Position numbers and translations under genes: made by a program. The notes beneath the pieces were generated by a model. The model saw only the letters and a list, made by a program, of their open reading frames with translations, did not search any database and had not been told where the DNA came from. A stretch of DNA of 63,921 bases, filler included, from Nemertoderma westbladi (Eukaryota; Animalia; Xenacoelomorpha): assembly GCA_032718475.1 (NCBI GenBank). It is 3 parts of 3 records of this genome, joined end to end, with 100 filler letters (N's around TTAATTAATTAA, not from the genome) between each part and the next. Parts side by side here need not be neighbours in the genome. Positions count along the whole stretch, not along the records: positions 1 to 28,763 come from JAUCBJ010002170.1; 2 more parts are not named here. One strand, written 5' to 3'. This document shows, one piece after another, positions 1 to 48,245 of this stretch; the stretch's first letter is position 1, and the number at the start of each line of letters is the position of its first letter.

Positions 1-3000
1 TCATTGTCCAGTAAATAATAGGACTCACTGGAATTAAGGATGGGCCAGTCTGGTTCAGCCAAACGAAGAAAATCCGGGCCATTAAGCCAATCAGTGGTTT
101 TCATAAATTTATGTGGTAATAAACCCCTACTCGCGTGGTCTGCAGGATTCAGTGCTCCAGGGCAATGACGCCACTGGTCTATGGTGGTATGCTCATGGAT
201 AATGCTGACCCTGTTGGCCACATAGGGTTTGAATCTACGAGATTCATTAGCTAAGTAAGCCAGTGTTACGGTTGAATCTGTCCAAAAGTTCATTGACCTA
301 ATGGGCAGGTCAATCTCACTACGCATTTTGACCGCGATTTCTACTGAAAGACGCGCGGCCTGGAGTTCTAGACGGGGTGTTGAGACATAGCGCAGAGGGG
401 CTGCACGGGATTTTGCTATAAGAAATCCCACGGTTAAGTCCCCATCTGGAGTAGTCGTTCTGATATAGGTAACAAAACCGTAACCTTTCTCACTAGCGTC
501 TGAAAAAGAATGCAATTCATAAACATTTTCTATAAAATAATTTGAAAAGTAAACTCTCGGTATACTTAGCTGGGATAAAGCAGAAAGTTGAAGCCTCCAG
601 TCGGTCAGCTGCTGCTCTAAAGTAACAGGAACGGGAGCATCCCATGATAGTTTCAATCGCCAAAGCTCCTGAAGTATGGTTCGAATGACAAGCGCAACTG
701 GTGCGATGAAGCCAAGGGGGTCGAACAGCGACCCGACAAGAGAGATAACTCCTCGTTTAGTTGAGCGCGTCTCTTTAATTCTCGTGTCTACAGAAAGGGT
801 GTCCGTTTCGGTGTTCCAGATGAGACCCAAGACTGTAGACACGTATGGAAGGTTTGGTTTGGGTGTCGCTAGCAGAGATGGATCTAGTTTATCAAGGAAT
901 TCTAGGCTGTTGGAGATGAATTTAACCAGTTGAAATCCACCCCTCGAAAGACAATCTACTAGTGAGTTCGCCAGACTGACTGATTCCCCCACGGTTGGTG
1001 CACCTGAACAACTGTCATCGTAGTAGAAATCTCGTTGGATCGCCTCATTGACGCGGGGGTCGTATAAGTGAGCATTGCCGCTTCCAGTTTTCCTGAGCGC
1101 GTCGAGTGCTACGGTTGGGGAATCTCCGGCTCCAAATATCCTGACCTCCATCCAGTACTCAGTTGGCTCCTTCGTTAAATCGCCTCCTTCCCACCAGAGA
1201 AATCTCAATGAATCTCGGTCCTGGGGATTAACGCGAACCTGATGGAACATGGCTCGAATATCTGCTGAGAATCCAATTAGGTGTTGCCTAAACCTACTTA
1301 AAACTCCGACTAATAAATTAGCTTGATCTGGGCCGTTCAAAAGGTTATCATTGAGTGATGTTCCTTTAAACATTGCGGAAGCATCAAAAACAACTCTAAC
1401 ACGGTTTGGTTTTTTGGGATGAAAAACTGGGTGATGTGATAAATACCAAGAGCGAGGGCCGTGATTTTCGGCCTCCTCTTGGGCTAGTTTTCTAGCGTAA
1501 CCTTGAGAAATATAATCCTCCACTTGTTCGGTGTACATAGCATGGAGTTCAGAATTAACAGCAAGGCGTTTTTTGAGCCAAGCTAGCCTTTTCTGAGCTT
1601 GCTGCTTATTACAAGGTAACGAGATGTTATCTCGTTTCCATAATAGCCCGGAGCTGTAATGTCCGTCTGAGGTCAGTTGGGCTTGGTTTAACAGTTTTTG
1701 TGCTCTGTGGTCTTCAAGGGAATAGTCATTGCCTAAAGAAGATGTTAAAGCGTCATGTTCCAAGAGTCGGCGCAAGTTCGTCTCTAGTTCATGTACAGTC
1801 GGGTCCAGGTCTTTGTCTGGGAGGTCTGTAGTCTGAGCTGAGTACCACTCGTTTGTTAGCGTCATATGCGCCTCCAGAAGTCTAGATGCAACAGATGAGT
1901 CCATTGGCGCAAGATTCGGTCCACAAACTACCCAACCAAATGGAGTTTTGACAGCATAAGGCTCATTATTGGGATCTGAGCCCCAGCGACTGTCGTATTG
2001 CTGCAAAGCAAGGGGAACATTCTGCCCAAGCAGTACGGTTACTTGTAGAATGTCTAAGTGAGGGTGGCTCAGGTCTATGTCGGACAAGTGTGGCCACTCT
2101 TCTACATCCCACTGTGTATAAGGGTTAAAGTTGTGTTTAAATTTGGAAATTACATCAAAATGTACGTCTCTAAAAAATTCACCTTTTGAATCCTGCGATG
2201 GATCGTCAACAGGTGAAACTGAACAAAGAACCTTTCCTACATCTAAGGATCTGTCATTATCTACACAGGTCATAAAAGAGACTGTTCTATGGTCTGTCGC
2301 TTTTAAGCCGAGCTCTGCAATCACATCGGCGTCTATAAAAGACGCACTAGAACCCGTGTCGAGCATACCATAGGTTGTTATTGTACGTCCTGTGTCAGTA
2401 TGCAAACGTATAGGAATTGTCTGCAACGCGGTATTTCTCGGCCGTTTATCTAAACAGACATTGGCTGAAATACTTTGTACATGTACAGTCTGTGAGTCTG
2501 TCACAGTTGGTTTGGATTGGGCTGTGGCGGTTGCATCTGACTTACTGGTACCAACATTAAGCCTACTCGGCTTTACACTTTCCTTAGTTTGTTCAGTAGG
2601 ATGTAGTAGAGTGTGGTGTCTCATGCTACAAACTCTACAACGAAATTTCGAAAGACAGTTAGGCGCAATGTGCCCTATTGCGAGGCAGTTATAACAAATA
2701 GGCTTAGAGTACTCGGATACAAACTTACGGCGTTCTGTTACAGAATTTGTAATAAATTTGTCACATCTATATAGCCTATCATGATCGCCCTTACAGCAAA
2801 TACAAAAATCAGAGCCCTTGTCTTTATCATGTCGAGTGGGCTGTACTGTATTTACTGAAGTCGTGTCTAGGTTGTTATTTGGTGTGTTACGAGAGTTTGA
2901 AGAGCTGTTAATGTCTGTACTTTTAACCTGTCTTTGCGCAGGGGGTTGGCTTGCAGGTGTGGAGCTTGGTCGTTGCTTGACCCTTGTAAATATCGGGTGG

Positions 3001-5813
3001 TTAAGCACCCGAGCTTCCTCTTGTACAAACGAGATTAGATCGGTTATGCCTGGGTTAGATTTATATCTGTCGTAATAACGACTTGCATGTCGTTGAAAAC
3101 GGTTAAACTGTTCATTAGGCATCCTTCCCGCGATAAGGTTCAGGTTCTCACCCGTGTTTATTTCTGCAGTTAAGCCGATGCTTTCAAGTGTGGTGTAACC
3201 AAGTAACAATTCGTCGGCAAACTTCAGTAGGTCCGCGGGTGTGTTGCTATAATTCGGGCCGCGTATAATGGTCGATAGCACAGACTTGACTACCTTTGAT
3301 GGGTGGCCAAATCTCTCGTTGAGGCGGGTCCACGCTAATGAATAACCATTGGCTACTCCTTGGAGGTTGTCTACAAGTTTACGTGGTTCACCTATTGTAT
3401 ACTGTACAAGGTACATTAACTTTTCGCAGTCCGTTATTGGCTTACACCCAATGAGACTTTGAAAGGTCTCTTTGAATCGCAAAATTTCAGTAGGCTTGCC
3501 GTCGAATTTGGTGGGGTCAGGAGATGGAAGAGACAGTCGTAATAGTATGGATTGGTCTAAGCTACTGGGGACTGAGCTGTCGGATCCTACGTCTGGCGTC
3601 GCTCGCAAATGTCCTGTACTGTCAGTCGCAGGTGTCTCGAAATGACCCACCGTCGGCAGAGATTGTGTCTGAGTTGGATTCAAATTTTGGGGGTAGCGCT
3701 CTGGGACAAAGGCCTGGCGAGTCTGAGAATGATAATGTGGTCTATAAAAGGGATGTGGTGTTGTGTTTCTAGGCTGAAACTGTACACTGGGTTGTCTATA
3801 ATATTGAGTGACAGCTGGAACCCTGCTCGTACGTCCATGGTGAAACTCCACCATGCTATCTAGTGAGGGATGGTTAAAAGTGGGTTCTACGGCAGGATGG
3901 GATAGGTCTGCTACAGTAGAATAAATGGTTCGAGGGTTATACTCTGGTACATGTGGATTTAATTCGGATTGGGCACGACTGTTAACTGTGTCGGCATATA
4001 TTGGAACTGTCTGATACTGCGTAGTATTAACTACAACTGGTATTGACTGCTTGACGGAAGAACATATATTTATGCTATTACCAGAAGCCTTGTCTACTAC
4101 AGTAGAGTGGATGGTTCTAGGGTTATATTCTGGTACATATGGATTTAATACGGATGGGACACAGTCGTTAACTGTGTCAGTATATATCGGTACAGTACGA
4201 TACTGCGTAGTATTAACTACTGGTACAGACTGCTGGACATTTTCTGGGACATTTGCTGGACAAGCCTGGTCTGCAGCAATTGTACTACTTATACCTACAG
4301 TATTACTCGCACTTACTGTATGAGTACCCGCTATATTAATTGAGCTAGTGACTGGAGGGGTTATACTGGTAATATTTGGACAGGTACTATCAGGAGGTAC
4401 AAGTAAATATGCGCTGCTAATAGGAGTTGCAGTAGTATTACCAGTAAGTTCATTTTCGTAAAATTGAGACTCAAGCTCTGCCTCGTCGTGTTCGATTTCT
4501 CGACGTAGTTGCCTCTGTCGAAGTTGTCTTTGTCGTAGTTCGGTCTGAATTTGGTCTAGTTCTGCGTCGCGTTGTAAATGCAGTTTAGATTTTTGTAATT
4601 TTAAACGCGCCGCACGAGCGATTCCGCTGAGTTTGGAACTCGAAACGGAAGAAATTCTACTGTCCTTGGTTTTGTTGCTAGTATTAGATGCTATATTACT
4701 TACAGAATCGTCGGGGTGGACATCGTCGCCGTGGGGATCGTTCCGGGATCTCCGTGTTTGACTCGCCGTGGGGTGACGCTCCTGGGTCGCTCTGAGACGA
4801 TTATAGGTGCCCTGTCGGCCCTCAGTCGGGTGGGTATTCGTTTCTGAACGAGGCCAATCTCTTCGGTGCAGAGCTGCACCTTGCTGACGGTCGCTACCGG
4901 TACTCGCTGGCGGGATAATAAACTGGGCTGTGTTATATTCCTGTTCTGATACCTGTAAAATAGATGGCACAGCAGTATCTCGGCTACTCGACAAAACGCT
5001 GCCTACTGCACCTGTGGTGTTACGGTGAAAAGGCTGGTTTATGTCTTGCGAAATTGACTGACTTTCCTGTGGTGAGATTGATGTTGTTGAATGTGTAGGT
5101 CTATCAACGCATGTAACTAAAGAATTATCAAAATTCGTCAAAGGACCATACAAACCATCTCTAGTTGCGTCCATTAGAGATTGAAAGTTGTCTCCTAACT
5201 GGGATGGTTGGCGAGCAGAAATCTCGCCAGTATTACCGATAGTGGACTCAGGAATAATTGTTGGATCTGCAACTAAATTAGCAGGATTATTACCGGTAGC
5301 TTGTAGGCCTACCGTTACAGCATTAGGATGAGAGTCCGTTGTACCGGTACATTTAATTATAAATAGTTCGTATTCGCGTTTTAACATTTCAAAACGGAAT
5401 TTTACATCCGCAGAGACAGACCAAATTTGGTCAACCAAAGGTATTTCACTAGGATTGCTGTGTCCTTTGGATAATGTTAGAATGCATAACTTGGATTTTT
5501 CTAGAAGTTTAGAAAATGATCTGTTTAAGGCCATCCAGAGTGCACTTACCTGCTGGGCGTCGTGTTGTGTAAATTCGTCACAATCGGCGATTGCGGCTAT
5601 TAGCGCGTTCTCACTCCGGGTGAATGCCGCCTTGTAGCCACCCCAGCTCCTGCCGATTGACAGCGACAGGACGGCTTGCCCATCGGTTGGGCTTCGGCCC
5701 GACGTCTCATTGTTTAACGGTGCGTCCATCGTCTCAGCAGGGAGGGTAGTACCGGTAGTTGACGGGCTCGTAGTTAATGTAACTTGTTCGTCGGTAAGAA
5801 GTGTCCGATCCAT
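1..5813 (-). CDS. BEL/Pao retrotransposon Gag-Pol polyprotein (element C), running off the left edge of the window
   Basis: ATG at 5813 (MDRTLLTDEQ...) is in the same frame as the RT motif at ~1020 and the window start. Hand translation shows zinc knuckles (CICCKGDH, CYNCLAIGHIAPNC, CRVCSMRHHTLLH, ~2600-2810), protease MLDTGS (~2350), RT FYYDD (1014-1028) and RNase H LHSFSDASEKGYG and DQWRHCPGALNPADHASRG. Its absence from the ORF track is consistent with no stop codon inside the window. Confidence 0.93.
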   Translation of the reverse strand, partial: MDRTLLTDEQVTLTTSPSTTGTTLPAETMDAPLNNETSGRSPTDGQAVLSLSIGRSWGGYKAAFTRSENALIAAIADCDEFTQHDAQQVSALWMALNRSFSKLLEKSKLCILTLSKGHSNPSEIPLVDQIWSVSADVKFRFEMLKREYELFIIKCTGTTDSHPNAVTVGLQATGNNPANLVADPTIIPESTIGNTGEISARQPSQLGDNFQSLMDATRDGLYGPLTNFDNSLVTCVDRPTHSTTSISPQESQSISQDINQPFHRNTTGAVGSVLSSSRDTAVPSILQVSEQEYNTAQFIIPPASTGSDRQQGAALHRRDWPRSETNTHPTEGRQGTYNRLRATQERHPTASQTRRSRNDPHGDDVHPDDSVSNIASNTSNKTKDSRISSVSSSKLSGIARAARLKLQKSKLHLQRDAELDQIQTELRQRQLRQRQLRREIEHDEAELESQFYENELTGNTTATPISSAYLLVPPDSTCPNITSITPPVTSSINIAGTHTVSASNTVGISSTIAADQACPANVPENVQQSVPVVNTTQYRTVPIYTDTVNDCVPSVLNPYVPEYNPRTIHSTVVDKASGNSINICSSVKQSIPVVVNTTQYQTVPIYADTVNSRAQSELNPHVPEYNPRTIYSTVADLSHPAVEPTFNHPSLDSMVEFHHGRTSRVPAVTQYYRQPSVQFQPRNTTPHPFYRPHYHSQTRQAFVPERYPQNLNPTQTQSLPTVGHFETPATDSTGHLRATPDVGSDSSVPSSLDQSILLRLSLPSPDPTKFDGKPTEILRFKETFQSLIGCKPITDCEKLMYLVQYTIGEPRKLVDNLQGVANGYSLAWTRLNERFGHPSKVVKSVLSTIIRGPNYSNTPADLLKFADELLLGYTTLESIGLTAEINTGENLNLIAGRMPNEQFNRFQRHASRYYDRYKSNPGITDLISFVQEEARVLNHPIFTRVKQRPSSTPASQPPAQRQVKSTDINSSSNSRNTPNNNLDTTSVNTVQPTRHDKDKGSDFCICCKGDHDRLYRCDKFITNSVTERRKFVSEYSKPICYNCLAIGHIAPNCLSKFRCRVCSMRHHTLLHPTEQTKESVKPSRLNVGTSKSDATATAQSKPTVTDSQTVHVQSISANVCLDKRPRNTALQTIPIRLHTDTGRTITTYGMLDTGSSASFIDADVIAELGLKATDHRTVSFMTCVDNDRSLDVGKVLCSVSPVDDPSQDSKGEFFRDVHFDVISKFKHNFNPYTQWDVEEWPHLSDIDLSHPHLDILQVTVLLGQNVPLALQQYDSRWGSDPNNEPYAVKTPFGWVVCGPNLAPMDSSVASRLLEAHMTLTNEWYSAQTTDLPDKDLDPTVHELETNLRRLLEHDALTSSLGNDYSLEDHRAQKLLNQAQLTSDGHYSSGLLWKRDNISLPCNKQQAQKRLAWLKKRLAVNSELHAMYTEQVEDYISQGYARKLAQEEAENHGPRSWYLSHHPVFHPKKPNRVRVVFDASAMFKGTSLNDNLLNGPDQANLLVGVLSRFRQHLIGFSADIRAMFHQVRVNPQDRDSLRFLWWEGGDLTKEPTEYWMEVRIFGAGDSPTVALDALRKTGSGNAHLYDPRVNEAIQRDFYYDDSCSGAPTVGESVSLANSLVDCLSRGGFQLVKFISNSLEFLDKLDPSLLATPKPNLPYVSTVLGLIWNTETDTLSVDTRIKETRSTKRGVISLVGSLFDPLGFIAPVALVIRTILQELWRLKLSWDAPVPVTLEQQLTDWRLQLSALSQLSIPRVYFSNYFIENVYELHSFSDASEKGYGFVTYIRTTTPDGDLTVGFLIAKSRAAPLRYVSTPRLELQAARLSVEIAVKMRSEIDLPIRSMNFWTDSTVTLAYLANESRRFKPYVANRVSIIHEHTTIDQWRHCPGALNPADHASRGLLPHKFMKTTDWLNGPDFLRLAEPDWPILNSSESYYLLDN

Positions 5814-7408
5814 GACTTTGCGGTTGCGGTTTTCCCTGTTTCTTTTACTACAGTACGGTAGGTAGGCCAGTACAGCAGTAAGTACTGAAGTACCGGTAGA
5901 CCGGTACGGTAAAACAAAGGTATCGTGTTTCACGCTGTTGTAGCGGCCAGGCTACTGTGCGGCTGACCGCGTTAAAATTTTGGTGCGGCGGGTTGAAATA
6001 TTGCAGTATGGCGGTGTTTTGTATTACGCGCACAATCGAGCATACTAGGGTTGAAAATGACTTGGGTGTGATTAAGTTCAGTTTTATTTATTATCAATTA
6101 TTGTAGGGCGATAGTTCATTATTTTCAATAATTCGATAAAATATTATTATATAATTTACAATTTACCGGTAATTAAATAGAATTGTTTGAAAACTGCGTT
6201 AATAAACTGTTAAATAGGGGTATTATCAAAAGGTTGGGAAAAAATTCGTCTGTTTTGGTAAAGTATTGAAAATGAAAAATAGGTGAACCGGTAATGGTAA
6301 AAGTAAAACAATAAATTTAAGGTCTGAATAAGGGGCAAGGGGGGGACTCGATTGAGCGGTGAAACACGCTGCCTAACAACCGACCAAAATTATCAGTGAA
6401 AAGGATCCCTTAATAAAGATTCTGAGCTTTTTTATAGTAATTTGTGCATTAAGGGGGTTCCCGATATATTACTCGATAATTAACGGTCAAAGTTCAAACA
6501 CTGGCATCTGAATGATATTGCTGAATTAATAATTACGGGTATAGCCAATAGGATGGCTGGGGAGCCTATACATGGGGATAGCCTCACTGTGTCAACTGCT
6601 AAATCAGGGCAATGCATCTATATTGGATATAGTGAATGCTCATACTACGCTAAGTTGCATTCTAAGTACAGTGATTGGATCGGTCATTCAAAAAAAACCC
6701 ACAAAGAATGAATGAATGTAAAAATACATGAGTTTGTTTGAAGGTAATCCAATCCAATTAAGGCGGCCCTTCTGATGAAATGATAAATGATATTGAAGGT
6801 AGTCCAATCCCGTCAAGGTGGCCCTTCTGATGGAATGAAACGATATGCGGGATTGAATGAATAACCAAACCAAGAACTGCACAATAAAATGATTGTATGC
6901 GTGGTAAGGGCAGAATAATTGGCAATTTAATTCATTTTATCTATGTGAAACTGCCCATGTACAAACTTCCCAGACACCGGGAGGGTGCCGAAAATTTCAG
7001 GTCTGCCGTCATTCTAATGCCTGGAAAAGGTTAGTGATCAAAATGGTAACGGAATAGCCCAAAATGCACAAAAATAACTATAAATAAATATCATTCTAGC
7101 ATTTTAGAAGTTTGAGTTTGGCCGTCGGCGCAACGTGAATCGCTAATTAAGAGGGTTCTGAGCGGATTATTAAATACAGTATATACGTGGATATTAAATG
7201 CTTAAAGATAAGAATAATTTAAAACAAAATACAGTATATGACGTTATAATAATAATAAAATAAATAATTATATGTACTGGAAAAAGGTTAATTACTGTCA
7301 TGGGTAAAGGGTTCGGTGGCAACATTATAGGGAAAATGGGCTTAAAGCCGCAACACGCATAGTGGGCAAAGCCGCAACAAAAGGATAATGGGCTCTACCG
7401 CCGCAACA
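1..7408 (-). mobile_element. BEL/Pao LTR retrotransposon C (5' LTR, leader and partial gag-pol)
   Basis: Gag-pol as above. A likely LTR start TGTTGCGGC lies on the minus strand at 7408 (gccgcaaca motif repeated three times, 7345-7408). The inner LTR boundary could not be fixed. Confidence 0.75.
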
Positions 7409-7664
7409 ATGGTCACAACTACTACTGGTAGGTTACGAAACTGAAAGTAAATAAATAAGGGGCCTAAATAAATAATAAATAGAAATACGATTAAATATTG
7501 GATGAAAGTGGATAAATAAAGAGGATAAATGGGACAGACGAATTTAATTGCAGCTAAATTTTTGATGTGCTGAGCGTTAGCCTACAAACCCTTATTTAAA
7601 AAAATTGTTACTATCGATATTTTTACTCTCGATATTTTTCATCTTCATATTTTTACTCTCGATA

Positions 7665-21789: not shown

Positions 21790-21993
21790 ATCTTGAAATC
21801 AAATACCAAAAATATATTTATTATATGAACAATCTATTTAGAAATTGATAGATAATTGCCGTATTTAGTGGTGCGATATAACGGTATATAGGCTGTAACA
21901 CGGTACCGCTAATTTTGACATCGTTACATCTGAACATCTCTGTAATAATTTTAATTATTTAATATAAATGCTTGAAGATCATTACACAATTAT

Positions 21994-24002: not shown

Positions 24003-25216
24003 TGTAAAAGCCTTTGCTGAATTGCCCCGTTATTTTTATTATCTTTTACATTAAAATACTCTGTAGTTGATTTAATAAGTGTAAGAGACCGTATTATTAC
24101 TGTATCGGTGTTTTTAGAGGATCTAAGACTTATTTCCTTCGTATGTGTATTGTGAAAGGTATATTTTTATGATTCTATGGCAATTCGTGACGCAAAGGAG
24201 TGATAGCTACTCTTGAACAGTAGTTACTATGACTACGGTTAACAGCTGACATTCATACGTGTTGATTTCCTTTGTTCTACGGCGTCTCTCAGCTCAGTCA
24301 GCCAATGAGAGCGTTTTTGTGGCTCCTTGTACAGAGAATTTCCGAGAAATGACGCAATGCCTATGTGCAGTGTTTATCATTCAGTCTTGAGCCAAAGAAA
24401 GAACGGCTTAGAAATATTTTGTGCTGTACTGCTTTTTAGTCGTACACTAGTAGGTTTAATTATAAAGGGCATATATCCTTTAACTGCAAACGGACTGACG
24501 GAACTGCATGCCTATGTGCACTGACATACCGGTGCTGATTTGTTGTTTTATACTGCTATTTGCTGTCAGTTCTTCATAATATGGTTGATGAATTATTATA
24601 TTTGGAATAACGATAAACAACCCCGAAACCCAATGTTCTTGATATACCGAAGGTAAGAGAGAAGGTTACAGATAAACGATTGTGACTTATGTTAAAGTGG
24701 GTTGAAGTGAATCTAATGTTATTTGATAGACCCTACATGAGTCAGCCTGTGTTCCTTTTATATGTGACTAAAATCAGTGAAGATTGGCAGATTAGTGTGC
24801 AGTATTGTGCAGCATAGTGTATGAGTGAGTCTGTTAAAGAAGCAATTCCTAAAGAATGCGCCATATATGTGGATTATAATTAAGCCATATCGTTGCGAGT
24901 AGTTTAAGTCATAACTCTGTTTATGTAGATAAAGCGCCACGTCCTAAAGGAACTGTTAATATTACCGAAGGTGAATAATATTGTCAGAGATTATATAATA
25001 CTGTCAGTCGAATAATACATTAGGCTTACATAGCAATAAAAATTAAACCGTCGAACCCAATCTCCCGGGAATATCCAGCGGGTGAATGGTCGCGCACGGA
25101 TTGGTTTCGACTAGTGTAGTGAATCAAATACTTGTCATAGACTAAAAAGCGATTTATTATCTAGAAGACATTCTAATTTGGCGGGTTAAACTGCCAAAGG
25201 TCTGAAAGCGCGAACA
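24003..25216 (+). repeat. 5' LTR of element A
   Basis: Begins TGTAAAAGC and ends GCGCGAACA like the element B LTRs; CCAAT at 24302; AATAAA at ~25035; shares the taacagttcctttaggacgtggcgcttt block with B in reverse complement. Confidence 0.85.
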
Positions 25217-25228
25217 TTAAAGGATATA
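25217..25228 (+). promoter_or_regulatory. Non-tRNA PBS-position sequence, complementary to own LTR 24472-24483
   Basis: ttaaaggatata is the exact reverse complement of tatatcctttaa. Confidence 0.7.
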
Positions 25229-27412
25229 GCTTCTTATTGCAGTAAGCAATAAAGTTAAAAGTACCGGTCAACCGGTACATCTGTAGGTCAGTAGGCCCAA
25301 CTGCCAGAACCGGTACCAGTAGGCCTGACTGCCTGATCATCCGGACCGGTACCTACAGCAGTATTATTCGATTTTGATAATTATATACCGGTAGGCCTTA
25401 ATAATTAATCAGGGAGGGCCCGCCCTGGTTTTTTATTGAGATTTTACTTATTTCTGTCAAGTTTTATTTATTTGTAGGCCAGTATTGAACAGAAGGCGTG
25501 TAAACCTGATCAGATTGTACAGACAATTTGTAGGCTGAGCTGTTGTCTGATTGCTGTTAAGTCTGAACGGATTGCAGTGTGTGTAGAGCAACTGTCCGAT
25601 TAAGTACGGTTAGGAAGTTTGGGCAGCCAATGCAGTAAGGTAAACCCCAATTAAAGAATAAGTCGTACTACTGGGTTAGAACGCATACTCTCTAATCATT
25701 TCGGAGTCTGCATGTACTGTGGTTTATTTAGACTTGAGAGTAGTCTGCCATCGTTTGGTCTGTACTTTGTTTGTGTAAGTCTGTACAGGTAGCGTATAAT
25801 TTTATTTAGATAACTTGTAGGCTGGATAGTTGTCTGGCTGTTATTAAGTCTGAACGGATTGTAGTGTGTGTAGAGCATCTGTCCGATTAAGTAAGGTTAG
25901 GAAGTTGAGGCAGCCAATGCAGTAAGGTAAACCCTCAATTAAAGAATAAGGCGTACTACTGGGTTAGAACGCATACTCCCTAATCGTTTCGGAGTCTGCA
26001 TATACCGTGGTTTGTTTAGGCTTGATAGTAGTCTGTCAGTATTTAGTCTGCATTTTGTTTAAGTGGTTTGTACGCGTTGCGTAATATTTATTATTCAGAG
26101 TTTATGCGATTATTCGCAACATTCATGTCCCCAAGTTTGTTCCTACAGTAATTGTGTTTGTTATACATACCGCTATAGTTAAATTAACCCGGTACTATAC
26201 GGGCTGCTCGGCGTAGGTAAAGACTGGTGATTTTGTGCATCGGTCACTCCAGCAGATGCCGTGGTTCTTTTAGCTGTTCAAGTATATTTAACTGCTGATT
26301 ATTTGTTGTACAAGTACTCGTACCTAATTTAGGGTTTAGTGTACAGTGCTTTCCTGAAGTAATTAGTGTAGACATTATATTTGTGTTGTAAAGTGGTTGA
26401 TAGGCACATTCGATTAGCTCTATTAACTTCTAGGTAGGAACACTCCGTGATACATAACGTAGAACCTATAGCGATACGGCTATAGGTCGTCAGGCGGTGG
26501 TATTTTCCTATCTAGACAACGCAGTGTATTTACTACTACTTATTATTTCAAATACCGTAGTACCCTGTCCGCTGTAATAATCAGTTTTCTAACCCTTTGT
26601 TAGGCTGGTTTGTAGACTTCTTGTAAAATTACCCTAAAAAATTCGTATTTGCGTTTTTGTAAATTTTTGCATTTATTTAGAGATTGTAATCTCACCCGAA
26701 TTGTACGTAATTTGTAGTATTAAGTAACTTAGGTAAATTAGAATTATTTGTTTTAGTGTCCTATACGTAACACTTCACTGAAAGCGCACCGCTTTGTGTA
26801 GTGATTACTCCCCAGAAATAATAACATTTATTTCAAACATTGACAAAACCCACTAAAACGGGTATATATATATTATAAATCAAATCTAACGATTTATAAA
26901 TCGTAGGCCTACCATACAACCATTAGGTCTCAATATCAGTTGGATTACTGCTCAAATAACGGTAATAAAGTAAGTTAAAGTAACCAAGTAACCCTAAAAT
27001 ACAGAAATTCAATTATTTAAAATAATTGATATACCGGTATTTACGATAGGCCTATTATCTTTATTTTTATAAATCTAGGTTGAAATTATACCGGTACTTG
27101 TAATTAATTATATTTCAGAATTATATATCCTACAAACTGTAAGCTGTATACCGGTATTCCGATAGGCCTATTATATATTTATATATATTTGTGCTAAAAT
27201 TATACCGGTATTCTGTGATAAACCTAGTCTGTAATAATACTTATATAGTTATATATACTATAAGTATACCGGTATTCTAATATATTATATATATATCACG
27301 CTACACTGAGTAGCAGTAACGGTAATTAATTACTAGGCTAGCGGTTCATACTGAGTTATTAGACTTACTCAGACTGTAATACAGCAGTAGACATTCAACG
27401 GTATACATAGTC

Positions 27413-28763
27413 ATGTCTGATACTAAGCAGAACCTGTCAGACAGTTTATTAGATGTAACTATCTGCGACTCAGATAGAGACGTACAAACGTCTGGTCGTA
27501 AATCCAGTTCACCTCCCACTGTGAGGAAGGTCATCCCTCCAGTAGTAATAACAGAACCTAGGCTGGTCCAACATCGTAGGTCTATCATAGGCACTCGAGC
27601 TCAGGTCAAGCGGGACCAAAAGGCAGCGGAACAGCAACAACCCGCTAGTCAAGAACTTATTCCTCAGCGGCCCAGCAGCTCCAGTAGTGAGGATACTGTA
27701 GAGCTGACACCAGAGAGCGGAGCAGAGATGACGGATGCGGTTTATACGGATCCCCTTCTCATCCTTCCTGCAGCCGTGCTCGCTGGGTTATTGATCGCGG
27801 TGGAAGAACACCAGATCGATTGGGCGAGAAGTCAACGGTCAACTAGAGATAGCTACGCGGGCTACACTAGTGAAGAACTGAAGTCTATTGTCGAGTCGCA
27901 ATGGAACTTCCCCGGACCCGGACTCCCGTTTGATTTATCAGAAGCTGCCTGGGAAGACATACACCGGATGGGAGTAGCCAAGGAAACCATCGATCCAGCT
28001 GTGTGGAAGAGGTCCGCAGCCGGATACGCACAGGGATTCTTCAGCTCTATGGAGCGAATAGAAAAGCAACTTTTTCAACAACCTCAAGGACCTCAAGAGC
28101 AGGGATCGCTGCTTTATCAAGTTAGAGAAAGAGTTCTGCGGATTAGGCTAATCTTATCCGCCTTTGAGGAGGCTTCTAAAAGAAGGCAAGACACGTCGTT
28201 GCAAGTTGCCGTAAAGACTTGGTTTCAACGGGTGAGTTGCCAGGTTCAAGGAGCAGCTCAGTGGAAGGCTCAGTTGGAGGAGCGCTCAACCCATGGAGAA
28301 TCAACAGACGCTACTTTTTCCCAAGTGGAAAGTGAAGCGACGGCAGAGAAACCGCATAAGAAGGATGCCATTGATATCTATCTGTCAGACTATCAGCGTT
28401 TTGTGGGAGATGAAGAGTTGAGGAGAAGGCTAGAGGGACTTAGCCCTAATAGTGAAGGAGCCCAGCGTGTGTTAGATGCAATTGATGTGGATAGGTTAGC
28501 GGCGAACCAAGCTAAATTCGATGAACAACTCCGCATCGCTAGAGAAAAGGAAGAACAAGTAAAGAAAAAACGTATAGAAGACAGAAAGGCAGCGGCAGTA
28601 GCAGCAGCAGTGGCAGCTGCAGAAGCAGAAACAAAGGCGGCAGCGGCAGAGGCAGCGGCAGAGGCAAAAGCGGCAGCGGCAGAGGCAATGGCAGAGGCAA
28701 AAGCGGCAGCGGCAGAGGCAGCGGCAGAGGCAAAAGCGGCAGAAGCAGAAAGAAAGGCGGCAA
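27413..28763 (+). CDS. Gag N-terminal region with Ala/Glu/Lys coiled coil (element A), partial
   Basis: Aligns along its length with ORF 44554-46254, which leads into the BEL gag core; ends in a gap. Confidence 0.85.
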
Positions 28764-28863
28764 NNNNNNNNNNNNNNNNNNNNNNNNNNNNNNNNNNNNN
28801 NNNNNNNTTAATTAATTAANNNNNNNNNNNNNNNNNNNNNNNNNNNNNNNNNNNNNNNNNNNN
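28764..28863. other. Artificial contig linker (N44-TTAATTAATTAA-N44)
   Basis: Six-frame stop linker inside Ns; identical to the one at 50978-51077. Confidence 0.97.
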
Positions 28864-36008: not shown

Positions 36009-36532
36009 CCAGGCTGCAAATGGAGTGCAAAAATCGCAACGCGTTGTGCGCGGTAAAAGTGCGCGGAATTGAAATAAAAGTGCGCGGAATTGTGTGAAAA
36101 CACCAAAAGTGCGCGGTAATCTGTACAAAATATTAAAAGTCAAAGTGCGCGGATGGGGTGTAAAAAAAGTTATAAAGTGTGTGCAAAACTGCAATTTAAT
36201 GGGAAAAATACTGAAATAATTAGCCATAAAAAATTTTACTCGCTTCGCTCGCGTTTCTTTTCCATTTTACATTGTTAAAATGAAAAATTTCGCTCACGTT
36301 TTTTTTCATTTTGCATTGCCTAGATTTATTTTTTTATTTCTTTACGTTAATAAATAATACCTTTTTTGATTTATTTATTTATTCGTATGTTTGTGTGAAT
36401 TGAATTGTTTTTCAGTGTGGTGTGTGCGTTTTTTCAGTCAATGCGCGGTATATTGTCAGACAGTCAGATATTGCGCGGCTGAAAAATTGTGCGCGGGCGT
36501 TGTGCGCGGTTCAGTGGTGGTTTGCAGCCTGG
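36009..36532. mobile_element. hAT-like MITE inserted in the LINE (TAG)n tail
   Basis: gtagtagt|ccaggctgcaaa ... tttgcagcctgg|gtagtagt (8-bp TSD); subterminal gtgcgcgg repeats. Confidence 0.88.
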
Positions 36533-37829: not shown

Positions 37830-37902
37830 ATGTCTATACTGTACCTTATACCTTAACCAACCCAAACGGCCCTTTTCAGGGCCAACTACTGTACGACCTG
37901 AA

Positions 37903-39104
37903 TGTTCGCGCTTTTAGACCTTTAGCAGTTTAACCTGCCAATTTTAATTGTCTTTTTGTATATCAATTATTTAATGTACTGAAGTTACATCAGCCGAAGC
38001 CAGCCTGTGCGCGACCATTCACCCACAGTTAAGGGAGACTGGATTCGGATGCTTTGATAGTGATTGCAGTGTAGACCTACTGTATTATTCGATTGATCGT
38101 TAATATATATTCTCTGACAATATATTTACTTTCGGGGAAATATTAACAGTTCCTTTAGGACGTGGCGCTTTAAGTATAAAACAGAGTTATGACTTATACT
38201 AATCACAACTGGATGGCTACTGAGTTTCGTAAAAAGCGCATTCTTTAGGAGATGCTTTATTAACCTTCACACTACTTCACACGACTTCACACTACTTCAC
38301 ACTACTGCGCACTGATCTGCCGACCGTCACTGAATTTGATCATATATAAGGAGGATCGCAACTGACACATGTAGGGATTATGAAATAGCATTCAATTCAC
38401 ACAAAAACCACTATAATGTAAGTCGCAGTTGCTACCGTTAAACCTGTTCCTCTAACCTTTAGTAATCAAGAAGATTGGGGGTTTTATGATTATTCATCGG
38501 TATTCTCCAAATATATCAGCATTATACACCAACATAACACCAATTAATAACAGAATCAAATAATGCGGTGAACAGTCAGTATGTGTTACTTATGCAGTGT
38601 TCCATGTGCAGCAATGCATGAATTGCGGTGTGATGCGGTAGTTGAATCGCGTTGCGTAGTGCCGCGTTAATAGTTTTACGTTCTTGTAATCAAAGCCATC
38701 TGATGTTTCTGATGTTTAGGTCAAAGTCTGAAACTTCCAACACAGAAGTACAGAAGAATTTCCAAGCAGTTGTTCTCGCTCAGAAAGGTAAACAAAGACC
38801 GTAATGCATTGCGCGGTTTTCCATAGGCCTCTGTACAAGATAAAATGAAAATCGCTCTGATTGGCTGAGCTGAGCGAGCTGAACAAAGAAGTTCCACATC
38901 GACAGTAAATCAGCTGACAGATTTCGTAATCTGAACTACAATCTATTTAGAGTATTAAGCGCATTGCGGTTAAAATGGCTTGTTATGTCCGCTAAAGCAC
39001 CTATACTGCGCATTGCGGGGGAATTGGCTTGTTATGTCCGCTTAAACACTTACACAGTAAATTGCGGACAAAAATGACTCGTTATATCTGCAAAAGCTTT
39101 TACA
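37903..39104 (-). repeat. 3' LTR of element B
   Basis: Near-identical to 48246-49434. Confidence 0.95.
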
Positions 39105-41199: not shown

Positions 41200-41922
41200 T
41201 TAACTCACTTCTAATTCTAGCGTGGTTGTTGCCATGGTGTCTTTCCAGTCTCTTTCCAGTAAACATAAACGACCAACTGGGGGATTGAGTTGTTGTGTTT
41301 CGAATACAATTCCAGGTTTTCTCTTCGTCCTGGAATAGTGACGATGGAAACATCGCTTCAAATACACGACAGCCTTACAAAGCCGATTCCAGGAGCTAGA
41401 GTGATTTATCGCTCTCTGCAGGAGAGGTGAGAGTCCCTGCGTGATGTATGGTGTTCCAGATTTCCAGTCCCTTTCTCTAATTTCCACGACAGATTTATTT
41501 GTGGCGGGGGAGTTTAGATCCATAGCGTCGTCCCCTGAAATGTGTAGTACAGACAGATCAATCACGGGTTTAAATAACTTTGATTTACTCGTCCGGGTTT
41601 TAGGTTTGACTTTCTCCGCTCCCTTGGCTTGTCTAATCTCAGCTGTGGTGAGATGAGGAGGCCATTCATCCTCTTCTTTACTTAGGAAGTCGGGTCCACC
41701 TAACCAGTCTGGAGTATCTGTCAGTTCTTGAGGAGTTGCTCCTCTGGAAGCGATGTCGGCTGGATTAATCGTCCCAGGGCAATGTCTCCATTGATCTACA
41801 TTAGAGTTAATATCGTCATTATCTGAGGAGTATGGTGTTCCCTCAGTTGTGTTCTCTCCCTCACTGATTTCTTCTTCCCATTCACTCACCTGATCTACTT
41901 GGTCGTTAGGTAATCTTTCCAT
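41200..41922 (-). pseudogene. Pol remnant: post-protease linker fused to the end of RNase H
   Basis: DQWRHCPGTINPADIASRG...WLGGPDFL...SSWNRLCKAVVYLKR; no RT or integrase motifs. Confidence 0.85.
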
Positions 41923-42069
41923 GAGTGTTCTACGGGAAGGTCCAGTGAAGTACCAACCTACTCTCGTTCTTCCCGCATATGTTTGTAATGGTTGCGGTCG
42001 AGCAGGCCGTTTTTCTAATGTCTCTAGCGCCTCATGCGCATTTTGGCCAAAGAGTATCTGTACTCATGG

Positions 42070-42915
42070 TTAGTCGGTGTTGAATCTAGGGATATCATGC
42101 TGCTGGGTAAAATCGTCTTCATCCCAGTTGTAAGGTTCCACTGGGCTGGTAGCAAAGTTCTTTATCGCCACCATCTTTACTGACCTTATGCTGTGTTCTC
42201 CTAGTTCATCCTGGGGAGTGGACAACGCTCCTACATAATAGTCTGTAGCTACTGTGGACTTCCAAACCTGCATAATTCCTGAAAGGTTCAACTGAGTTCG
42301 GAACTTGGGTTGTCCAGCAAAGATATCTTCGGCTAGTTCTTTGTCGATGAATGTTCCTGTGCTGCCGGAGTCCAGGAGGGCGTTGACTATAAAACTCTTA
42401 CCTGATCCATGGACTCTCAGCTGAACTACGGGGAATTCCCGGATTCCGACGTTGGAAGTTGGCGCTTTCCAAGATGGTTGTCGGTCAGGAATAGCCGGGT
42501 GCGCTTCGTTATCGGTTTCAGTCTCATACGTAAGCGCTCGATACACCGCGGTGTTTGTCATATAACAGGATTCGTTTTCGTCGGAGAATTCGTCGGTGTA
42601 GAATCCTTCCATCTCGGAGCTGTGGTCAGTGTCGTTCACATCACTGAAATGGACATGTAGTTCGGGCTCACTTACCTGACTCGTTCGGGTTCTTTCAAAT
42701 TCTGTGTGCAGCAAGATATGATGTTTCGCGCCGCACTTAGCATACCTACCATCTGAGTAACAGGTCCGCCGTTGGTGTCCACATCTGAGACAATTATAAC
42801 ACAACCGCTTATCCCACATGACATCACGTCTATCCTTTCAGGATTTCTTTAAGAATTCATCACACACACTTAAACGATGGGGCCCATCGCACAATGCACA
42901 TTTTGGTTTGATGTT
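42070..42915 (-). pseudogene. Gag zinc knuckles and aspartic protease, frameshifted
   Basis: CALCDGPH, CYNCLRCGHQRRTC, KCGAKHHILLH, ALLDSGSTGTFID. Confidence 0.88.
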
Positions 42916-42922
42916 ACTTACT

Positions 42923-44578
42923 TTACCTTGGCACACCGTTGTGCACACTCGTTCTTTCCTCGGGCTTTCTTCCATGAATTCTCTTAGGAGACGTAGGAGG
43001 AGTTTTTGTTACCTGTTCTCTCCTGTCACTGGTTCGAGACTTGAATTTACTTACGTCTTTAGGTGCTTTGTTGACATAGTAAGATCTTTCGGTGTCTTTC
43101 CCGCTGTTCTCCTCTTGAGAGGTTTGGCTTTCGCCGTCGTCTGTATAACACACTGGTGTTACTTTTCTCCTAGAAACGGGTTTTTCACTCACCTCACTTT
43201 CAGGAGTCTTCTCTCTAGACTGTTTCAGGAGTTGTAATCTTACCTCTCGGTTTAAGAATGACAGAAGGTCCGTCATGGTTGGATCTCTATGTTGTTGGTC
43301 CATCAAATAGAGAACCCTTTTGTCCCAGCGAGTACCTACTTCACCCTTTGGCAAAGCTGATGCTAAGGCTCCTACAACCATAGAATTCTGGTATTCATGA
43401 GACTTACCTAACCAATCTAGTTGTCTACAGATCTCCTGAATCTCATCGGAAAACTCTATAATCCCGCTGCTAAGGAACTTTCGGGGCGCTACCAATTTCG
43501 CATACAAATACCTAGCTATGTTAGTCCTATTACCATACCTGATGTTTAGTGTATCCCAAACTTGTCTTAATCCATCTGGATGTCCAATAAACTTCAACGC
43601 CATTAACTTGGGAGATCCTTCCAAGCACTCGATGAGGAATCTAGGTTTCTCTCCGTTAGATAGCACAGATTTCTGTATGTTATCTTTATAATATTCATTA
43701 AAAGGTAACCATTTCATCTCATCTCTGTTGAACTTGACGATCTCTCCCACCTTTACCGCTTGACGGGCTTCGGTTCTAGCCATTTGACACGTAAAACTTT
43801 CTTGGGCCATCGTATTATTTAATATCGAGTTATCGGTATATAAATTTCTCGGATTATGATCAGGTCTATATGGAATATCATTATCAACAGGTTTATAATT
43901 ACCCTTAATAGGGTTTACTATAGGAGTTTCTACTTCACTAGCAGTATAGATGCGTGTAGGCTCCACACCTTGCACATGAAATACTTCAGACCTAACAGGT
44001 TGACACATTGTTACAGGGGGTGGTGGTATACCCCTTTGTATATTTACTAATTTATCGCGTTCTAACGCGATACTCTGCTGCACTTCTTGCAGTTCTAACC
44101 TACCCTCTCTTACTGTTCCCTTTAACTGCTGCACAGTCCCTTCCATTTCTCGGACGTGCTGGGAGGAACGTAGACGCTGTTCCTCTAATTGTCCGAGCAG
44201 GATATCCATCCCCCGCCGTCCCTCATCCACCCACTCGACCGCCGAAGCGGGAGCCGCCAACATAGTAGCGGGTAGACGAGGGACGACGGGCGATAAATCG
44301 TTGATGTCTCGCTCGGCGTCCAAGACTGGGACTGTTTCTGTGGCTATTCTATTGGGCACAGGTAATTTAGTACTGTGCAAAGGGAATTTAGAGTTAGGTT
44401 CTGGAATTACAGGTGTCTCTATCACCGAAGGGGTGGCTTCGAGAACAGGCCTAATTATTTCAGGCTCATCTACTATAGTAGGGAGTCTTTCTACTCTAAT
44501 AATTTGGTCTGTGGGTTCTGTACTACCTAAGTCTGCACTAGCTAGTTGCCTTCTCACAGCTGGGGGCAAATTAAGCAA
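42923..44578 (-). CDS. BEL gag core (DUF1759-like)
   Basis: KFNRDEMKWLPF...EKPRFLIECLEGSP...WDTLNIRYGN...DLLSFL pattern typical of BEL gag. Confidence 0.8.
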   Translation of the reverse strand: MLNLPPAVRRQLASADLGSTEPTDQIIRVERLPTIVDEPEIIRPVLEATPSVIETPVIPEPNSKFPLHSTKLPVPNRIATETVPVLDAERDINDLSPVVPRLPATMLAAPASAVEWVDEGRRGMDILLGQLEEQRLRSSQHVREMEGTVQQLKGTVREGRLELQEVQQSIALERDKLVNIQRGIPPPPVTMCQPVRSEVFHVQGVEPTRIYTASEVETPIVNPIKGNYKPVDNDIPYRPDHNPRNLYTDNSILNNTMAQESFTCQMARTEARQAVKVGEIVKFNRDEMKWLPFNEYYKDNIQKSVLSNGEKPRFLIECLEGSPKLMALKFIGHPDGLRQVWDTLNIRYGNRTNIARYLYAKLVAPRKFLSSGIIEFSDEIQEICRQLDWLGKSHEYQNSMVVGALASALPKGEVGTRWDKRVLYLMDQQHRDPTMTDLLSFLNREVRLQLLKQSREKTPESEVSEKPVSRRKVTPVCYTDDGESQTSQEENSGKDTERSYYVNKAPKDVSKFKSRTSDRREQVTKTPPTSPKRIHGRKPEERTSVHNGVPR

Positions 44579-46254
44579 TTTCTGATGGTGAGGCGTTCTT
44601 CTACGTCTGTTGGAACGAGATCTGTTTCCTCCGCCTTCAGGATCTGTTGTATCGCCTTCATCAGATGATGTAAATCCTTGTCTCTTGTCTCTTTATTGAA
44701 GTAGTCTTGCTTCTCTTGAAGATTTTCCAACTCTAGTTGGACTGTCTCTTCAGATGCCCTCCGTTCTGCTGCTGCCACCGCCTCTGCTGCTTTTCTTTCC
44801 GCTTCTGCCACTGCTACCTTTCTTTCAGCCTCTGCCTCTGCCGCTGCCTCTTTTCTTTCAACTTCTGCAGCTGCTGCTTTTCTTTCAGCCTCTGCCACTG
44901 CCGCTTTTCTTTCTGCCTCTGCCACTGCCACTGCAGCTGCTGCTTTTCTTTCAGCCTCTGCCACTGCCGCCTTTTTTTCTGCCTCTGCCACTGCCACTGC
45001 AGCTGCCGCTTTTCTTTCAACTTGTGCCGCTGCCGCTGCTGATGTCTTTCTGTCTTCTATCCGTTTTTTCTTTAATTGTTCTTCCTGTTCCCTAGCGATG
45101 AGGATGCTTTCATCGAATTTATCCTGCTCTACAGCTAACATTTCCGCATCTAATGCGTCTAACACAAATTTGGCTCCCTCACTAGTAGGATGAAGTCCAG
45201 CTAGCCGTCTCCTTAGTTCTTTGTCGCCTATAAATCGTTGATAGTCTGACAGATAGATGTCAATGGCGTCCTTCTTCTGAGGTTTCTCTGATGTCGCTTC
45301 GCTTTCCACCTGAGAAAAGGTAGCATCTGTTGATTCTCCGTGGGTCGAACGCTCAGTTAGCTGAATTTTCCATTGGGTCGTCCCTTGGACTTTAAGACTC
45401 ACCCGTTGGAACCAAGTCTTTACGGCAACTTGCAACGACGTGTCTTGTCTTCTCTTCGAGGCTTCCTCAAAGGCCGATAGTATTAGTCGGATTCTTAGGA
45501 TACGTTCTCGAACTTGATAAAGCAGCTCTCCCTGCTCTTGAGGTCCCTGGGGTTGTTGGAACAGTTGTTCTTCTAATCGCTCCAAAGAGCTGAAGAATCC
45601 CTGTACATATCCTGCTGCCGACCTCTTCCACACAGCTGGATCTCTAGTGTCCTTTACCACTCCCATCCTGTATAAGTCTTCCCAGGCAGCTTCCGATAAG
45701 TTAAACGGGAATCCGGGTCCGGGGAAGTTCCATTGCGTTTCGACAATAGACTTTAGTTCCTCCCTTGTGTATCCCGCATAACTGTCCTTGGTCGATCGCT
45801 TACTTCTCGCCCAATCGATTTGATGTTCCTCCACCGCAATCAATACCCTAGTGAGTACGGCTTCAGGAAGAATGAGAAGTGGATCCGAATAAACTGCTTC
45901 TGCTATCTTTGCTCCGCACTCGGGTGTCAACTCTACAGTATCTGAACTACCGGAGCTATCGGGCCGCTGAGAAATAAGTTCTCGGCTCGGGTGTTGCTGC
46001 TGTTTAACAGCTGCCTCTTGGTCCCGCTTGACTTGAGCGCGAGTGCCTATGATAGACCTACGGTGCTTCACTAACTTCGCAAATTGCGAAATTGCTTCTA
46101 CTAACCTAGGTTCTGACACAACTACTGTAGGGGTTGCCTTTCTTACAGTAGGAGGGGACTTGGACTTCGGTCTCAGATGTTCTGCACTCCTATCTGAGTC
46201 GCAGACTGTTCTTTCTAGTAGACTATCTGACAGAGTTTGCTTTGTGTCAGCCAT
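44554..46254 (-). CDS. Gag N-terminal extension with (AEAERKAAA)n coiled coil (element B)
   Basis: 566-aa ATG-initiated ORF overlapping the gag core in another frame; homologous to 27413-28763. Confidence 0.82.
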   Translation of the reverse strand: MADTKQTLSDSLLERTVCDSDRSAEHLRPKSKSPPTVRKATPTVVVSEPRLVEAISQFAKLVKHRRSIIGTRAQVKRDQEAAVKQQQHPSRELISQRPDSSGSSDTVELTPECGAKIAEAVYSDPLLILPEAVLTRVLIAVEEHQIDWARSKRSTKDSYAGYTREELKSIVETQWNFPGPGFPFNLSEAAWEDLYRMGVVKDTRDPAVWKRSAAGYVQGFFSSLERLEEQLFQQPQGPQEQGELLYQVRERILRIRLILSAFEEASKRRQDTSLQVAVKTWFQRVSLKVQGTTQWKIQLTERSTHGESTDATFSQVESEATSEKPQKKDAIDIYLSDYQRFIGDKELRRRLAGLHPTSEGAKFVLDALDAEMLAVEQDKFDESILIAREQEEQLKKKRIEDRKTSAAAAAQVERKAAAAVAVAEAEKKAAVAEAERKAAAAVAVAEAERKAAVAEAERKAAAAEVERKEAAAEAEAERKVAVAEAERKAAEAVAAAERRASEETVQLELENLQEKQDYFNKETRDKDLHHLMKAIQQILKAEETDLVPTDVEERLTIRNCLICPQL

Positions 46255-48234
46255 GTTTGATTGTATAGTTGAATGCCTACTACTATAACGACAGTTAAAG
46301 CAAGTCTAGTAATTTAGTAACAACTGTAAGCCTAGTAATGAATTACCGATACCGTTACTCAGTGTAACGTGATATATATACAACTGTACAATATTAGAAT
46401 ACCGGTATACACTTATAGTATATATAATATATATAAGTATTATTACAGACTAGGATTTGTCACAGAATACCGGTATATAGTTTCAGCATAAATTTATATA
46501 AATATATAATAAGCCTACCGTGAATACCGGTATACAGCTTACACTTATAGTATATATAAGTATAATTATAGACTAGAATTAATTACAGAATACCGGTATA
46601 TAATTTCAGCATAAATTTATATAAATAAATATAATAAGCCTATAGTAAATACCGGTATGTCAATTATTTTTATAATAACTGAATTTCTGAATTTTAGGGT
46701 TACTTTACTTTACTTTATTGCTGTTATTAAGCAGTAGTCCAACTGATATTAAGACCTAATTGATGGATAACAGGCCTACTATTTTATAAATCGGTTTGAG
46801 TTGATTTATAATATATATATACCCGTATAATGGGTTTTTGTCAATGTTTGAAATAAATGTTATTATTTCTGGTGAGGAGTCACTACACAGAAGCTGAACG
46901 CTCTCAGTGGAGTGCTACTTGTTGGACACTAAAACAAATAATTCTACTTGACTAAGTTACTTATTACTACAAATTATGTACAATTACTGGGTGAGATTTC
47001 AATCTCTAAATAAACACAAAAAATTACACGTACAAATTTTAGGGTAATTTTACAGGAAATCTACAAACCAGCCTAACAAGGGGTTAGAATTTCTGGTTAT
47101 TACAAACGGACAGGATACTACGGTATTTGAAAATAATTAAATAGTAGTAAATAAATTACGTTGTCCAGATAAGAAAATACCACCGTCTGACGACTTATAG
47201 TCTTTAGCTGTACAGCTCTATAAGTACTACATTATGTACCCCGAAGTGTTCTTACCTAGAAGTTAATTACCGCAGCCAACCAGAGCTAACGTGCCTATTA
47301 ACCACTTTACAACACAAATATACTGCCTACACACTAATTACCTTCGGAAAGTACTGTACACTAAACCCTAAATTAGGTACAAGTACTTATACAACAAATA
47401 ACCAGCAGTTAAAAATACTTGTATAGCTAAAAGAACCACGGTATCTGCTGGAGTGACTAGAGCATAAAATCACCAGTCTTTACCTACGCCAAGCAGCCCT
47501 GATGTAGTACCGGGGTTAATTTAACTATAACGGTATATATAACAAGCACAATTACTGTAGGAATTAACTTGGGGATTTATGTATGTTGCGAATACTCGCA
47601 TAGACTCTGAATAATAAATATTACGCTACCCGTGCAGACTACACAAACAAAATACAAACCAAACGCTGGCAGACTACTATCAAGCCTAAATAAACTACAG
47701 TATATGCAGACTCCGAAATGGTTAGTTAGTATGCGTTCTAACCGAGTAGTACGACTTATTCTTTCGGGGGGGGGGGGGGGGATTTACCTTACAGCACTGG
47801 ATGCCCCCACCTTCCTAACTAGTACTTTATCGGACATACACTCTACACACACTGCAATCTCTTCAGACTTAACAACAGTCAGACAACAATCCAGCCTACA
47901 AATTATTTGTACAATCTGAGCAGGCTTACACGCCTTCTGCTCAATATTACACTTACAAATAAATAAAACAGACAGAAATAAGTAAAATCCCAATAAAAAA
48001 CCAGGTGTCCCTGAAATATCAAGACCTACCGGTATATAATTATCAAAATCGAATAATACTGTTGTACCTGTAAGTACCGGTTCGGGCAGTTGGGCAGTTA
48101 GGCCTACAGCTTACCATTCGACCGGTACTTTCGACTTTATTGCCTACGGTGCAATAAAGTATCTAAAAATCTATTATTGTTCTTACCAGAACAATAGACA
48201 AAATATTTATTGCCTACGTGCAATCAAGAGTTTA

Positions 48235-48245
48235 AAAACTATTAA
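48235..48245 (-). promoter_or_regulatory. Non-tRNA PBS-position sequence, complementary to own LTR 48997-49007
   Basis: Minus-strand ttaatagtttt pairs with minus-strand aaaactattaa. Confidence 0.7.

Follow-up and report, generated by a model that had tools for sequence, protein, structure and literature searches.

Candidate self-priming BEL/Pao retrotransposons in the genome of Nemertoderma westbladi

BEL/Pao elements at the locus

In this study, we analyzed a stretch of 63,921 nt from the Nemertoderma westbladi assembly (hereafter, the window) and examined three retrotransposons within it, designated A, B and C. Only B, on the minus strand, displayed both a TG...CA LTR pair and a target duplication, whereas A and C each had one LTR in the window. 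The 5' LTR of B (48246..49434, 1189 nt) and its 3' LTR (37903..39104, 1202 nt) were 97.4% identical (BLAST), and the 5-bp target duplication TTCAG flanked the element on both sides, preceding the 5' LTR and following the 3' LTR. Coding remnants in several frames, interrupted by stops and frame changes, were found at 41200..46305 (minus strand): a gag with zinc knuckles and DUF1759 (PF03564, E = 2.2e-9, above the cut-off), a protease and, directly behind it, the C-terminal motif of RNase H (41835-41659), all four matches of which carry PF05380. Neither tblastn with six polyproteins nor a profile search detected an RT, an RNase H core or an integrase in the 9.1-kb interior. Judged by this coding content, B is non-autonomous; because these enzymes are missing, it would need a helper, and any RNase H cut would be made in trans. 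Comparison of the gag and protease ORFs of B with longer proteins gave no match, and a protein search against a representative set yielded 49 weak matches, none of them at 1e-10. The polypurine tract of B (39105-39135, minus strand) was short and atypical: purines occupy 8 of the 10 nt that precede the 3' LTR. The element sits in a short tandem repeat with a unit of about 57 nt, present at both ends (37860-37902 and 49435-49500).

Element A lies on the plus strand. Its 5' LTR (24003..25216, 1214 nt) has the ends TGT...ACA, and its 3' boundary rests on homology to both B LTRs because the window, with a gap at 28764, holds no second A LTR. The first gag-region ORF (27380..28819, plus strand) was 76% identical to that of B over 421 aa; it enters the gap, which the interior of A reaches before the integrase region. 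At position 24003 the element breaks an open frame of a non-LTR retrotransposon (21976-24002, plus strand), which was recognized by eye from RT-like motifs and a proline-rich repeat and had no Pfam match at 0.01.

Element C (minus strand) was located by tblastn with Pao polyproteins; neither C nor the loss of RT, RNase H core and integrase from B had appeared in the initial annotation of this DNA. An open gag-protease-RT-RNase H frame of 1983 aa (3..5951) with YYDD, DAS, PRLEL and TDS motifs runs off the window start, and C leaves the window before the integrase region. The gag region matched Pao polyproteins, and the alignment with Pao polyprotein P0010 covered 1191 columns (E = 1e-177). The LTR end at 5936 was proposed by a scan for self-complementary sites after CA, ahead of any boundary data. 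It was then fixed by public contigs, which had loose ends with mixed flanks exactly at 5936 in three of four runs (3, 4 and 3 contigs). Contig cover of this 5' LTR (5936..7560) continues to 7560, where a LINE fragment follows, and the 5' start was not found. A second candidate in C, a 12-nt match at 6256/7545, was dropped, as the contigs place the LTR end at 5936. The C LTR showed no blastn similarity to those of A and B, whereas its leader had an ACCGGT hairpin in common with A (18 of 20 nt).

The BEL/Pao identity first assigned to A and B was borne out by the DUF1759 gag, the Pao-type protease and the RNase H C-terminus. The protease-RT-RNase H order, with Pao-type RT and RNase H, was present in C, and B keeps only the protease and the RNase H C-terminus. 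By their proteins, TG...CA LTRs and 5-bp target duplication, the elements resemble canonical BEL/Pao (Belpaoviridae; Tas, Achilles), and all three belong to this family.

Complementarity between the LTR and the primer-binding position

According to the ICTV, BEL/Pao elements have an 18-nt primer-binding site (PBS) for tRNA-Arg or tRNA-Gly and their replication is poorly understood (PMC8742986); a tRNA-Tyr PBS is given for Achilles in a passage of PMC4580426. Unlike these canonical members, A, B and C had no TGG within 3 nt of the LTR end, and thus no PBS for a tRNA 3' end, in agreement with what had been noted for A and B. Because the tRNA-type PBS is absent, we classed the three as a BEL/Pao variant.

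Directly after the LTR of A, positions 25217..25228 (plus strand) are the exact reverse complement of a 12-nt stretch of the same LTR (24472..24483), the predicted self-primer site, which lies 733 nt upstream of the LTR end. Likewise, the primer-binding position of B (48235..48245, minus strand) is the exact reverse complement of 11 nt at 49007-48997, which lie 751 nt upstream of the LTR end and are identical in the 3' LTR. In C, 10 exact pairs join 5933-5924 to 6368-6359, and one bulged base extends the helix to the LTR end (primer-binding position 5924..5935; predicted site 6356..6368; minus strand). In each element the 10-12-bp complement has the priming orientation and ends at the U5 edge, with the bulge in C. 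The coordinates, polarity and register originally reported for A and B were all correct; in either element the match begins directly at the LTR end (offset 0).

The complementarity of A and B is real and far above chance. In a dinucleotide shuffle test that allowed offsets of 0-3 and a match anywhere in the LTR, a match as good as the real one arose in 1 of 4000 shuffles for A and 18 of 4000 for B. Among real window positions, a reverse match within 1200 nt upstream was found at 50 of 17,799 for 11 nt and 35 of 17,799 for 12 nt. Because these figures admit any place in the LTR, a match at the same place in both A and B would be far rarer still. When the LTR of A was compared with the primer-binding position of B, and the reverse, at most 5-6 nt matched. 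Duplex energies agreed: -12.4, -8.0 and -16.6 kcal/mol for the cognate pairs and -2.7 kcal/mol or weaker for all six crossed pairs. For C, 10 exact nt occurred in 13 of 3000 shuffles and 12 nt with one bulge in 0 of 3000, the bulge test having been chosen post hoc. Taken on its sequence, C is a weaker case than A and B but an independent one, and it places the signature in an element that encodes RT.

The A and B sites had been described as homologous, and they aligned without gaps, with 28 of 61 columns invariant. Within the site itself, 7 of 11 positions were identical and the other four had changed on both sides of the helix, none on one side only, just as the first reading held; three of these double changes were A-T/T-A flips without a G-U intermediate. 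Under independent drift, a toy model assigns this pattern a probability of about 1e-7 to 3e-6. The surrounding LTR blocks were 70-82% identical, so that the site diverges at the pace of its surroundings. By comparison, two other helices shared by A and B had one-sided changes only, and a third, short one had one double change in 6 pairs. Templated copying fits better than selection on an ordinary helix, because the site changes by double flips at LTR pace whereas the neighbouring helices change mostly on one side. This covariation comes from a single pair of elements, A and B; the sequence support as a whole consists of that covarying pair plus the weaker case of C.

Folding of the RNA gave a variable picture. 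Mean helix probability in whole-leader folds ranged from 0.00 to 0.34 for A (10 folds) and from 0.00 to 0.86 for B (10 folds). In C it was 0.74-0.95 in all six folds starting at most 16 nt from the site and 0.03-0.38 in four folds starting at least 33 nt upstream. An earlier fold had given 0.65-0.97 for the A helix and had placed the B site in an LTR-internal stem. The outcome thus depends on the chosen end points, and folding neither shows nor excludes the long-range helix, because the program cannot model crossing helices. Several flanking helices were drawn. A 13-bp LTR-leader helix (25006..25018 with 25361-25373 in A, plus strand; 48436-48424 with 48059-48047 in B) would, like its counterpart in the Tf1 pretzel, cross the primer helix and had one-sided G-U changes only, and a U5 hairpin common to A and B (25177..25198, plus strand) had two one-sided G-U changes. 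The leader helix was equalled in 55, 70 and 123 of 1000 shuffles for A, B and C, and the U5-end helix in 389, 164 and 696 per 1000; neither was significant alone. The pretzel was therefore rejected as an established fold, since none of its helices, although drawable in both A and B, clearly beats shuffles. Similarly, the imperfect pairing proposed to extend about 10 nt beyond the exact match could be drawn but not established, because a local hairpin right after the A primer-binding position (25234..25252, plus strand), possible in B too, uses the same bases of the leader and competes with it. A search of 23900-27400 against Rfam at E up to 1 returned nothing, so no known ribozyme supplies a cut there. 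The A and B LTRs also share identical blocks of 18-34 nt (24895-25110 and 48548-48337) with several possible hairpins and no Rfam match, which could be a packaging or translation element.

Probable self-priming and its alternatives

We consider it probable that the minus-strand DNA primer of A, B and C is a piece of their own RNA, cut from the LTR site independently of tRNA in the manner of Tf1. Self-priming in either form, by a cut primer or by the RNA 3' end, appears more probable still. Under the rule for predicted self-primers, which asks for an LTR complement of at least 10 bp starting 0-5 nt after the 5' LTR (as given in passages of PMC6317226), the values were 12 nt at offset 0 in A, 11 nt at offset 0 in B and 10 nt at offset 2 in C. 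With a cut primer, the transcript would start at the LTR site or slightly upstream, and folding of the RNA would bring the site to the primer-binding position across 420-750 nt; the pairing is seen in the sequence and the folding is predicted. By analogy with Tf1, a cut immediately 3' of the helix, for which RNase H is the most likely enzyme, would free a 3' end that abuts the last U5 base and from which RT would extend. C encodes RT and RNase H motifs of its own, whereas B, and probably A too, lacks RT, RNase H and integrase and would borrow these enzymes from an autonomous relative. With regard to the predicted start, A has a TATAAA at 24461 that B lacks, and reading it as a TATA box would place the transcription start downstream of the self-primer site; in C, a TATAAA lies 68 nt upstream of the site. 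These TATA-like words give no indication of a start at the site itself. A strong splice-donor-like word occurs downstream of the site in the A LTR (24651-24658) and is weaker in B; a 2.2-kb leader follows, and RNA spliced there could lose the primer site.

Retroviruses copy their primer into the PBS during plus-strand synthesis. If plus-strand synthesis copied the self-primer in the same way, it would rewrite the PBS, and a change in the LTR site would thereby be transmitted to it. In Ty1 and Ty3, however, the primer sequence is not passed on to the PBS (according to a passage of PMC5371799), so templated copying is not universal and this step is one that we infer.

The initial annotation had put forward a self-primed, tRNA-independent BEL lineage. 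The BEL/Pao identity, the missing PBS for a tRNA 3' end, the polarity and register, the full compensation and the third, independent element C all speak for such a lineage, and at the level of sequence the proposal appears to be partly supported overall.

One alternative, which we regard as unlikely, is that the helix serves a structural or regulatory pairing (packaging, dimerisation or a translation switch) and that something else primes. The LTR and leader are indeed full of possible helices (276 and 304 of at least 7 bp, with 38 matched pairs between A and B), and folding was unstable to the end points. Nevertheless, a structural pairing leaves unexplained why the LTR end is the exact limit of the helix in A and B, why the elements have no other primer site and why the site changes by double flips when neighbouring helices mostly do not.

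The RNA 3' end might also prime by itself, if the site were the cleavage and poly(A) position in the 3' LTR and the end annealed to the primer-binding position without an RNase H cut. This seemed improbable to us. Both the A and the B site end in AA, the TATAAA of A, a possible variant of a poly(A) signal, stands 17-22 nt before the end of the site, and 427-469 nt of LTR lie upstream of the site. However, B has no such hexamer there, the C site does not end in A, and each of the three LTRs has AATACA (25014, 48428 and 6025) as well as AATAAA on the downstream side of the site; moreover, a poly(A) tail would need to be removed.

Priming by a host tRNA fragment, such as the half-tRNA of copia and Ty5, or by a different small RNA of the host, in which case the LTR match would be secondary, was judged highly improbable. 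Such half-tRNA priming exists (described in parts of PMC5371799 and PMC6317226), but the three differing primer-binding positions would call for three host RNAs and a coincidental LTR match for each, and without a TGG there is no pairing with a CCA end. In addition, none of six 10-mers occurred in seven supplements of PMC13524379, including a table of 12-nt tRNA PBS types. The idea that the match arose by chance in AT-rich DNA, or by conversion between inverted repeats at the DNA level with no part in replication, can practically be dismissed: the A and B sites are AT-rich and 11-nt matches do occur elsewhere in the window, but the pairing stands at the same place in two families, at offset 0, with four compensated changes and a third, GC-richer case. 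Two further candidates were rejected. If these inverted repeats belonged to a nested DNA transposon, that element would extend across the LTR end, which the B 3' LTR and target duplication fix. As for a primer built by splicing, in which the match appears only after removal of an LTR intron, A and B match contiguously, no GT/GC-AG junction gives at least 11 nt, and in C junctions add at most 2-3 nt.

To compare family copies, we used public contigs. Over 1.4 kb, B-family pieces numbered 6236, 3649 and 2093 in three runs that carry one organism label, and a second organism contributed 69 in one run; the B family is very large. Among the 13 contig joints listed for it, four fell at 48996-48998, and one more was found at 48998, which is the 3' edge of the site; the letters beyond differed. 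In the second organism, three contigs agreed on the letters after the LTR end, which do not start with TGG and differ from those of A and B, with the LTR site unread in these contigs. No substitution fell inside the site or the primer-binding position among the 40 of 235 listed for the B family or the 40 of 58 listed for C, and the same was true of the 12 of 41 indels listed for C. The contigs were too short to link the LTR site with the primer-binding position in one copy, and the low contig cover over the site and the region after the PBS was not used as evidence. An exact scan for a 23-nt LTR motif gave no loci in metagenome and viral contigs, and protein-based scans of such contigs revealed no relatives.

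In the B leader (48249-48137, minus strand), the unit of LTR end and primer-binding position occurs a second time with about 78% similarity, preceded by a spacer that folds back on the unit. This second PBS-like unit, seen at 48177-48165, had no complement in the B LTR. One B-family contig, in which the LTR site is unread, seems to join the LTR end directly to it, and the go-back joints of contigs at 48227-48165 point to a tandem repeat that varies within the family. In the C LTR, a long predicted stem (6391-6346 with 6041-5976, minus strand) overlaps the primer site, and some family contigs skip its loop (joint 6047-6349).

Relation to known elements and other features of the window

Tf1 has been shown to self-prime, Tj1 and the Tf1/sushi group have been proposed to do so (parts of PMC4600332 and bioRxiv 10.1101/2022.12.06.519325), and self-priming is predicted for Tcn1 and the copia TAR lineage (passages of PMC6317226). 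Like Tf1 and Tf2 of S. pombe, Tj1, Tosmo, Tf1/sushi and Tcn1, which are Ty3/gypsy chromoviruses, A, B and C have an LTR complement of about 11 nt right after the 5' LTR and no tRNA site. The perfect pairing of 11-12 nt in A and B, and its register, match the 11-nt primer of Tf1 (as stated in part of PMC7175516), and it is possible to draw flanking helices that cross as in the pretzel topology of the Tf1 group (parts of bioRxiv 10.1101/2022.12.06.519325). Unlike that group, they have Pao-type proteins and no chromovirus membership, LTRs of at least 1.2 kb and 420-750 nt between the site and the primer-binding position. In A, B and C the start at the site and the RNase H cut are predictions and the flanking helices lack significance; B contains neither RT nor an RNase H core. 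Priming in these BEL/Pao elements is thus likely Tf1-like, yet outside the Tf1/sushi group. Self-priming of the TAR lineage (Houba and Osr-1, plant Ty1/copia) was deduced by the same sequence rule (passages of PMC6317226), but A, B and C belong to another superfamily and another host kingdom. The fungal GalEa (Ty1/copia) also has no tRNA PBS and carries a self-pairing sequence in its place; there, according to the authors in a passage of PMC5445492, the pairing is a local palindromic hairpin and there is no LTR complement, whereas the partner in A, B and C lies far inside the LTR.

What is new here is likely the occurrence of a known self-priming mechanism, in variant form, within BEL/Pao, which would contradict the standard description of the family as tRNA-primed. 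No report of self-priming BEL/Pao was found in the titles, abstract openings and passages of the open-access literature. A term search for primer sites gave nothing in PMC554778, PMC3118150, PMC2774666 and PMC6238403, and passages of PMC3286476 did not mention a BEL PBS.

We also advance, tentatively, the broader idea of a widespread BEL/Pao lineage without any tRNA priming, in which autonomous and very high-copy non-autonomous families self-prime over a loop of 400-750 nt. The primer would rewrite its binding site in each cycle, the pair, as a lock and key specific to its family, would be free to drift, and the RNase H of a helper would cut non-autonomous RNAs in trans. If this were true, self-priming would occur in all three main superfamilies of LTR retrotransposons, and tRNA independence would have arisen or persisted in a third one. 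This would bear on the question whether hairpin or self-priming came before tRNA priming, hairpin priming having been proposed as the older form (in a passage of PMC3601003). Annotation tools that require a tRNA PBS would overlook such elements, and the claim specifies the coordinates at which RNA 5' ends and cut sites are expected. One route of silencing uses 3' tRNA fragments aimed at the PBS, and such elements would evade it.

Elsewhere in the window, copies of a LINE-like RT family, 76-98% alike, were found at 7581-8820, 35045-36011, 50709-50933, 54426-54947 and 31280-31715, with PF00078 at 7581-8780. One of these copies adjoins the C LTR; an exact repeat of 59 nt and tandem arrays of 15-17 nt and 30 nt lie on its flanks. 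A 581-aa frame with cysteine/histidine clusters and no Pfam match lies at 56391-58136 (plus strand); we take it to resemble a Polinton-type DNA polymerase frame in its N-terminal part. An ARAGORN search of the window detected no tRNA. Finally, the gaps at 28764-28863 and 50978-51077 each consist of 44 N, a 12-nt linker and another 44 N.
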